This document shows positions 10,023 to 10,178 of a DNA stretch of 64,000 bases, piece after piece; positions within the stretch are counted from its first letter, which is position 1, and the number at the start of each line of letters is the position of its first letter. Both the position numbers and the translations under genes were made by a program. The DNA lies in NCBI GenBank assembly GCA_036521195.1, contig DATDID010000040.1, forward strand, positions 65,979 to 129,978. Reading direction: 5' to 3'. Under the pieces are notes generated by a model that saw only the letters and a list, made by a program, of their open reading frames with translations, had not been told where the DNA came from and did no database searches. Source of the DNA: Candidatus Dormiibacterota bacterium. GTDB lineage: Bacteria > Chloroflexota > Dormibacteria > Aeolococcales > Aeolococcaceae.

Positions 10023-10178
10023 GGGACGGCCTCCAACGATCGACGTTGACGGTCGCCCCACCGGCCGGACCGAGCGGTGCTCGGCCGAACCACACTATAC
10101 GAGATTGTGTATATCAACGGCCGCCGGCAGTCCCTCACGGAAACGCCAAGGCTCCGCTATTCTCGTGGAGTGAAGGAG

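Follow-up and report, generated by a model that had tools for sequence, protein, structure and literature searches.

The window analyzed here, 64,000 nt in all, corresponds to contig C40:65979-129978 of a 3.14-Mb metagenome-assembled genome with a G+C content of 66.8%, and every genome with which it was compared is metagenome-assembled as well. Judging by the organisms from which homologous proteins were recorded, it belongs to Candidatus Dormibacterota. On its minus strand we found a 120-aa orphan open reading frame (ORF), labeled S (9660-10022), with a control region directly upstream (10023-10117) and the typA/bipA gene downstream (7773-9635), with 24 nt between the S stop and the GTG start of typA. 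Another control region on the same strand (5596-5705) precedes an operon of three minus-strand genes, coding for a 79-aa two-helix membrane protein (5356-5595), a TrbL/VirB6-like polytopic membrane protein (4409-5350), and an M23 peptidase, a cell-wall hydrolase (3903-4415). The last of these probably starts beside the TrbL stop near position 4410, although its listed ORF extends to 4724.

Two sequence elements recur in these control regions. Element A, ATACACAAnnnCGTATAG, is found at 10095-10112 and 5679-5696, in both cases on the minus strand, while element B, GGCCGG(A/T)GGGGCGACCG, occupies 10050-10066 and 5630-5646. The recurrence of both in front of S had been pointed out in the initial annotation, and it extends to the genome as a whole, since the 3.14-Mb assembly contains exactly two exact copies of each; element A was not matched in any of 100 shuffled sequences. 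Copy 1 thus precedes the operon of the 79-aa protein, TrbL, and M23, and copy 2 precedes S, the upstream regions of S and of the 79-aa gene being 75% identical over 157 aligned columns. Copy 2, on the minus strand, is made up of a promoter box (10094-10112), in which the imperfect palindrome TACAC-N6-GTATA enters the -10 TATAGT (10094-10099), a hairpin P1 (CCGAGC-ACC-GCTCGG, 10070-10084) near the 5' end of the leader, the B box GGCCGGTGGGGCGACCG (10050-10066), whose 3' half is the 5' strand of a helix P3, a variable hairpin P2 nested within P3 (CAACG-TCGAT-CGTTG, 10034-10048), and the Shine-Dalgarno sequence (SD) GGAGG (10030-10034), followed by the 3' strand of P3 (GGCCGTCCC, 10023-10031) and the ATG (10020-10022). 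Copy 1 has the promoter TTGACA, 16-nt spacer, TATAGC, its promoter box at 5679-5696, its B box at 5630-5646, and an SD-occluding helix before the GTG at 5593-5595.

The 79-aa protein was detected in 61 of 61 relatives searched, with 94-99% identity within the genus. It gave no match in Pfam with E values up to 10, including the VirB2/TrbC pilins PF04956 and PF18895, and nothing relevant in NCBIfam. The AlphaFold2 model is a two-helix hairpin (helices 2-36 and 40-73, mean pLDDT of 75.8), for which Foldseek returned no PDB entry with an E value below 4. Considering that neither a pilin profile nor a solved structure matched, "pilin-like" is used here as a working label only. The gene that follows matches TrbL_4 (PF19597; E value of 5e-9, 36.4 bits against a cutoff of 27), and the third gene matches the M23 family (PF01551; E value of 7e-29, 100.3 bits).

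S is a real gene. We collected 108 homologues of about 120 aa, with an excess of substitutions at the third codon position (12/9/31 in the comparison with the nearest species, for instance), and within the genus it is present in 36 of 37 genomes with 61-84% identity. The protein consists of an N-terminal hydrophobic helix, a Pro/Ala-rich linker, and a long C-terminal helix, modeled by AlphaFold2 from 47 homologues as a helix at residues 2-29, a disordered stretch at 30-67, and a second helix at 68-116 (pLDDT of 70-92 in the last 50 residues and 68.8 overall). Searches with 47 members of the family against Pfam, NCBIfam, and PDB sequences gave no family match, and a structure search with S retrieved no homologue. 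The N terminus contains an AQA motif with proline at +1, a residue that disfavors signal-peptide cleavage at an A-x-A site at that position, and VHA-G/T offers an alternative site. The A-x-A site is missing from the homologues of other genera, which resemble signal anchors, and a lipobox-like VTAC is present in one of them. S is predicted, on the basis of these models and motifs, to be a small helical protein that is either exported or anchored in the membrane. A short ENA contig of 1017 nt (P0100) codes for a 162-aa product in which the first 105 residues of S are joined to a sigma-70 region-4 domain; this is most likely a chimeric contig rather than a real fusion.

Both control regions are kept throughout the genus, as could be read in 30 S loci and 30 pilin loci, and other S-bearing genera of the family (f1) also keep both. 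As the retention is accompanied by compensatory base changes in the leader (see below), it points to selection rather than to a recent neutral duplication, and we consider it very probable that both are functional, paralogous control regions and that S is genetically tied to the module formed by the pilin-like, TrbL, and M23 genes. Three assemblies have a contig that ends inside the promoter box (L023, start of G021:C97; L058, end of G028:C58; L059, end of G014:C1). The broken contigs begin with CAAATC(C/T)GTATA, and these are probably assembly-graph breaks at a two-copy repeat; a break of this kind may account for S not being found in G028.

The leader of S is a conserved, structured RNA of about 75 nt comprising P1, the box GGCCGG-W-GGGGCG(A/G)CC, the variable P2, and P3. 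The two hairpins had been proposed in the initial annotation together with an imperfect pairing of GGGGCGACC (10051-10059) with GGCCGTCCC, by which the second hairpin could extend over the SD, and the three of them were recovered in our analysis. When 74 nt of leader were folded, the minimum free energy (MFE) structure was the one described (-44.8 kcal/mol, z = -3.7), and none of 200 shuffles was as stable; the pilin leader of copy 1 gave a weaker signal (z = -1.6). The 60 leaders of the genus have a common layout, which runs from a promoter box ending in the -10 through a short 5' tail, P1, the box, and P2 to GGAGG, the complement of GGGCGACC (that is, P3), and a start codon 0-4 nt later. On its box side, P3 is formed by GGGCGACC, which pairs with GGCCGTCC or GGTCGCCC, and the box itself, GGCCGG-W-GGGGCGACCG, is nearly invariant, with four one-base variants among the 60. 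Partition-function folding of these leaders placed the last two G residues of the SD in helices, with an unpaired probability of ~0 in almost all of them; the first two G residues are usually paired and the central A is bulged. The predicted partner of the GGCCGG-W-G part of the box differs by species.

A covariance model (R1) built from the 30 S leaders only recovered the pilin leader in 37 of 37 genomes of the genus (E values from 3e-6 to 1e-3). Both leaders were found in all 37, including two genomes in which one of the units lies at the end of a contig, and the search revealed no consistent third site in the genus. The same model found nothing in 24 genomes of family f2. Neither leader was matched in Rfam 15, where a search of the whole window at the gathering cutoff gave only two tRNAs, or in a permissive scan of 5500-10250.

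The full P1/P2/P3 structure was proposed by hand and afterwards tested on alignments; RNAalifold alone, run on a MAFFT alignment, recovered P1 and only parts of P3 and P2. In the genus alignment of 60 leaders, 93% of the cells are paired, compared with at most 60% when the partners are slid, and in the family-wide alignment, the corresponding values are 88.8% and at most 51%; alignments A4 and A5 were fitted to the model structure, which biases them towards pairing. The family-wide values were reached by none of 500 shuffles. Compensatory (two-sided) changes affect 9 of the 19 pairs within the genus and 14 of 19 in the family, the latter distributed over P1 (six of six pairs), P2 (four of five), and P3 (four of eight). 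Within the genus, the 5' strand of P3 barely varies and one position is mismatched in 17 of 57 leaders, so that at this level the helix is supported by conservation and by changes from G-C to G-U. Across the family the box does vary and its partner follows, with GGGGCGACC:GGTCGCCC replaced by GGGGCGGCC:GGCCGCCCC or by GGGGTGGCC:GGCCACCCC.

These patterns also bear on whether the box acts as RNA or as DNA. It might instead be a protein-binding site in the DNA, located 35-55 bp downstream of the transcription start and working as a roadblock or activator site, in which case its pairing with the SD would be incidental. Among the 60 leaders of the genus, the box is near-constant and mismatches occur in its pairing partner, GGCCGG is itself palindromic, and the partner of GGCCGG is not conserved in the predicted folds, all of which would fit a DNA site. 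However, the partner changes along with the box (from A-U to G-C in six leaders and from C-G to U-A in one), and the flanking P1 and P2 covary as expected of an RNA, making a DNA role improbable. We regard it as reasonably likely that P3 gates translation at the RNA level. With the SD buried in P3, translation should stay off until some factor or condition opens the helix.

Leaders that sequester the SD are well known as the expression platforms of translational riboswitches, as protein-controlled translational operators, and as RNA thermometers of the ROSE and fourU types. The leaders described here resemble them in that an upstream anti-SD strand buries the ribosome-binding site up to the start codon, directly downstream of a strong promoter, and in that the helices are kept by compensatory changes. 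They differ in having neither an Rfam match nor a recognizable aptamer, and in that their anti-SD strand comes from a near-invariant box of 17 nt, the other half of which has no conserved partner. A thermometer was rejected, as the structure, with -38 to -45 kcal/mol, is far too stable (the leaders range in MFE from -27 to -48 kcal/mol, with P3 and P2 paired with a probability of ~1 at 37°C). An alternative pairing of P1 with GGCCGG, which could have served as a switch, is possible in some S leaders and was discarded as well, P1 being too divergent across the family.

A small riboswitch, in which a metabolite or ion would bind the box and the helix junction and so open or close P3, would fit a conserved, structured 5' untranslated region in which one helix occludes the SD and a purine-rich segment at a junction of helices is nearly invariant, in an RNA outside the existing Rfam families. 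The helices and the conserved box are present, but conservation does not extend to the P1 and P2 loops, no conserved alternative pairing was found, and the few conserved unpaired positions leave little room for a binding pocket. Moreover, each genome has only one or two such transcription units, and these are part of the same secretion module, with none in metabolism or transport. We consider a riboswitch quite improbable. Because the regulon is a single secretion module, a dedicated RNA-binding protein seems a likelier opener of the leader than a metabolite.

The initial annotation had also noted that an 11-mer in front of S, CCGAACCACAC (10085-10095), matches the reverse complement of 5615-5625 exactly, and this is correct. 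The match links the 5' end of the S leader with the P2 loop of the pilin leader. In 24 other species of the genus, such complementarity amounts to at most 6 nt, the exact match being confined to the source strain, and therefore a kissing interaction between the two mRNAs was dismissed as a coincidence or a strain-specific feature. A 29-nt inverted repeat, 90% complementary, was also seen between the coding sequences of TrbL (4598-4626) and S (9878-9906). The TrbL and S mRNAs would be complementary over this repeat, which may be due to chance in GC-rich codons for Ala, Thr, and Pro.

Upstream of the leader, the control regions have the features of a sigma-70-type promoter with an overlapping palindrome, the -35 being taken from copy 1 and from other genera. 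In the source genome, a good -10 (TATAGT) and the palindrome are both seen upstream of S, where no -35 passed the consensus scan; in other genera, the S promoters have TTGAC(C/G) as the -35. Taken together, the S and pilin promoters of the family follow the pattern TTGAC(A/C/G)-N2-4-TACACA-N4-TGTGTA-nnnT, where the operator consensus TACACA-N4-TGTGTA overlaps the -10 TAnnnT. Most S and pilin promoters of the family carry the palindrome, with TACACAcattTGTGTA and ACACAattcTGTGT as examples of perfect ones. Its right arm runs into the -10, a usual position for repressor sites, and judging from this placement we give slightly better than even chances to the prediction that it is bound by a repressor. 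The same palindrome precedes the S homologue of family f3, where the B-box leader is missing, indicating that the operator is older than the leader. We looked for a regulator gene adjoining the S or pilin operon and none emerged, as the upstream neighbors vary by genus (pstC/pstS, a selD-like gene, dnaJ, a PBP gene, and odhA).

The only other near-match to element A in the assembly is located at C21:3128-3145, on the start of comEA (in the cluster comEA-comEC-holA). Here, a perfect palindrome, ATACAC-TTCT-GTGTAT, overlaps the comEA start codon, and a winged-helix gene ends ~70 nt upstream of it. The part conserved in the genus is TACACT-N7-ATG, likely a leaderless promoter. This site was rejected as a third member of the regulon, given that its arms are spaced by N4 rather than N6 and the right arm is not conserved. 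In family f4, we observed a different motif, CTTAACAG-N5-GTTCC, placed 35-60 nt upstream of the pilin-like operon in six of seven loci (L193 and L195-L199) and also upstream of comEA in 6 of 15 genomes (L222, L230, L231, L235, L240, and L243). It was found nowhere else in the 49 kb scanned on both strands, a distribution that hints at coregulation of the module with this DNA uptake gene in f4.

In the source genus, the immediate neighbor of S is typA, adjacent in 30 of 30 loci with a gap of 22-26 nt and no terminator-like site in between. The spacer carries TCAGAAT (CAGAAT at 9642-9647), 6 nt, and GTG; the motif is invariant in 30 species, while the GTG is ATG in one of them. CAGAAT could possibly be the -10 of a leaderless typA transcript starting inside the end of the S unit, and read-through from the S promoter into typA is also possible. 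In family f2, typA has no S upstream, and TATCCT was seen there ~9 nt before its ATG. The adjacency and the short terminator-free gap could be taken to mean that the leader mainly controls typA, which codes for a GTPase of stress and cold growth, S being just a leader ORF. This is very unlikely, since S is a conserved protein and not a throw-away ORF, other genera have other genes or the pilin gene after S, and CAGAAT-N6-GTG/ATG suggests that typA may have its own leaderless promoter. Nor was typA retained as the ancestral partner of S, their adjacency being confined to the source genus.

The relationship between S and the module becomes clearer when other genera are considered. A profile derived from alignment A3 matched S in 76 of 117 genomes of the family, belonging to 13 of its 22 genera. 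From these we retrieved 20 S loci; the leader precedes every S whose start could be assigned, and the promoter box is present in most cases. In four genera (g8, g12, g222, and g229), the S stop lies 2-8 nt before the pilin start and is followed by TrbL and M23, the whole forming one operon with one leader. The S-pilin spacer is ~120 nt long in g16 and carries a second promoter and leader, and it measures 73 nt in g224, with a leader devoid of promoter box. The two genes are separated by 0.55-1.9 kb in g225, 2.4 kb in g220, 4 kb in the source genus (g1), and 13-15 kb in g10 and g15, and wherever they are separated in this way, one copy of the control region precedes S and another precedes the pilin-like gene. 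In one locus of g15 (L149 of G502, 4530-4700), the pilin-like gene that follows the second leader is interrupted after ~17 codons, where NNWILLAQ is followed by a duplicated out-of-frame stretch, which may reflect a pseudogene or an assembly error.

Outside the family, the synteny of the pilin-like, TrbL, and M23 genes holds in f3, f4, and f5. In f3 and f5, the stop of an ORF overlaps the pilin start in nine of nine loci; its product is built like S, with a membrane helix, a Pro-rich linker, and a C-terminal helix bearing the motif L..(L/I)N.D(D/T)...(Q/E)(W/Y)..(I/L)(L/Q).L, and profile-profile comparison with the S family using hhalign gave a probability of 96.8% (E value of 2.3e-10 over 106 columns). 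S was not found upstream of the pilin gene in seven f4 loci or in 20 f2 loci, and none was detected in the f1 clade formed by g11, g14, and g17, although these genera have the trio. At the f2 loci (L094-L113), the pilin-like gene lies ~70 nt after dtd (D-aminoacyl-tRNA deacylase), with a conserved GGCGGAC(A/C)TAGG motif in place of the box and leader, and no M23 gene was detected within 7 kb of it.

That S would be coregulated with the trio, as the initial annotation proposed, is supported by the retention of the leader at both units and by the gene order, and S was not found without the trio in any genome sampled. The further suggestion that it may be a component of the machine is likewise supported by gene order. 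S belongs to the operon in four f1 genera and, as its homologue, in f3 and f5, and because it abuts or heads the pilin operon in relatives, it appears to be an overlooked partner; yet it is not a universal core part, and its undetected state next to the trio in f2, f4, and g11/g14/g17 suggests an accessory partner or a cargo. Its physical role in the machine is proposed from gene order. One could also argue that the two control regions are left over from a duplication and share no regulatory meaning, and that S is an unrelated secreted neighbor, considering that it is an orphan lacking functional annotation and sits next to typA in the source genus. Nevertheless, at least eight genera have kept the duplicate since the split, with compensatory changes in it, and S is part of the pilin operon in four f1 genera and two other families, which makes a relic extremely improbable.

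A tree of TrbL rooted with f2 separates three clades, one with no detectable S (g11, g14, and g17), one that mainly has the operon, and one with the tandem and split arrangements, which includes the source genus and is sister to the operon clade. This is a quick gene tree rather than a species tree, and the direction of change rests on it. Combining the tree with the gene arrangements, the ancestral unit would have been an operon with S as the first cistron, followed by the pilin-like gene, TrbL, and M23. The B-box leader would have been gained in the source family, and then, on the way to the source genus, a duplicate of the promoter and leader would have arisen between S and the pilin-like gene. 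Later insertions between the two units, here typA and a gene for ACC deaminase, would have separated them. As the duplication preceded the separation, the same transcriptional and translational control is expected at both units.

We therefore propose, as the probable explanation, that 10023-10117 is the second, paralogous control region of a vertically inherited, chromosomal module similar to a type IV secretion system (T4SS) in Dormibacteria. Its sigma-70-type promoter would be governed through the imperfect palindrome, which spans the spacer and the start of the -10 and would act as the operator of a putative dimeric repressor. In the transcript, the 3' half of the box would pair with the stretch from the SD to the start codon, forming P3 and keeping translation off. 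S itself would work with the module or be handled by it.

In classical T4SS operons, genes next to those for the pilin and VirB6 code for small accessory proteins that are exported, such as VirB5/TrbJ and VirB7, of which VirB5 folds into a bundle of three helices and VirB7 belongs to the lipoproteins. S would be comparable to them in its small size, its N-terminal export or anchor signal, its position at the head of a string of pilin and VirB6 genes, and its apparent coregulation with them. It differs in showing no similarity in sequence or fold, its predicted mature part being a disordered Pro-rich linker and a helix of ~49 residues.

A chromosomal and mostly relaxase-less T4SS with VirB2-like pilins and VirB6 has been described in Patescibacteria, a lineage placed close to Dormibacterota (PMC12102498). 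As in that system, the genes found here are chromosomal, vertically inherited, and derived from conjugation in a monoderm-related lineage, and a small pilin-like gene adjoins a VirB6-type gene (PMC12102498). In contrast to it, the 79-aa protein has no pilin match in Pfam, the unit adds an M23 hydrolase and S, and the Dormibacteria module has a dedicated and duplicated operator and leader.

A more ambitious version, which we advance only as a doubtful possibility, is that S serves as a structural subunit or an adaptor in a T4SS-derived envelope machine, domesticated and present throughout the class, and that the box is the docking site of a dedicated RNA-binding regulator, which would release translation at both units. 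If such a regulator docks at the box, the leader and the palindromic operator together would form a two-tier switch of transcription and translation of an undescribed kind. The motif common to the pilin operon and comEA in f4 would, in turn, point to DNA uptake as the job of the machine.

Dormibacterota are abundant uncultured bacteria of soil and permafrost whose gene regulation and envelope machines are almost uncharted. In this group, gene order across three families assigns the orphan family S to a conserved T4SS-like module, and the control regions define a new structured leader RNA and a palindromic operator, both searchable and testable. They also provide a clean natural case of an operon that was split while its coregulation was kept by copying the promoter, the operator, and the translational leader. 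Two cis elements and one small protein are now available as handles for metatranscriptomes and for work in surrogate hosts.
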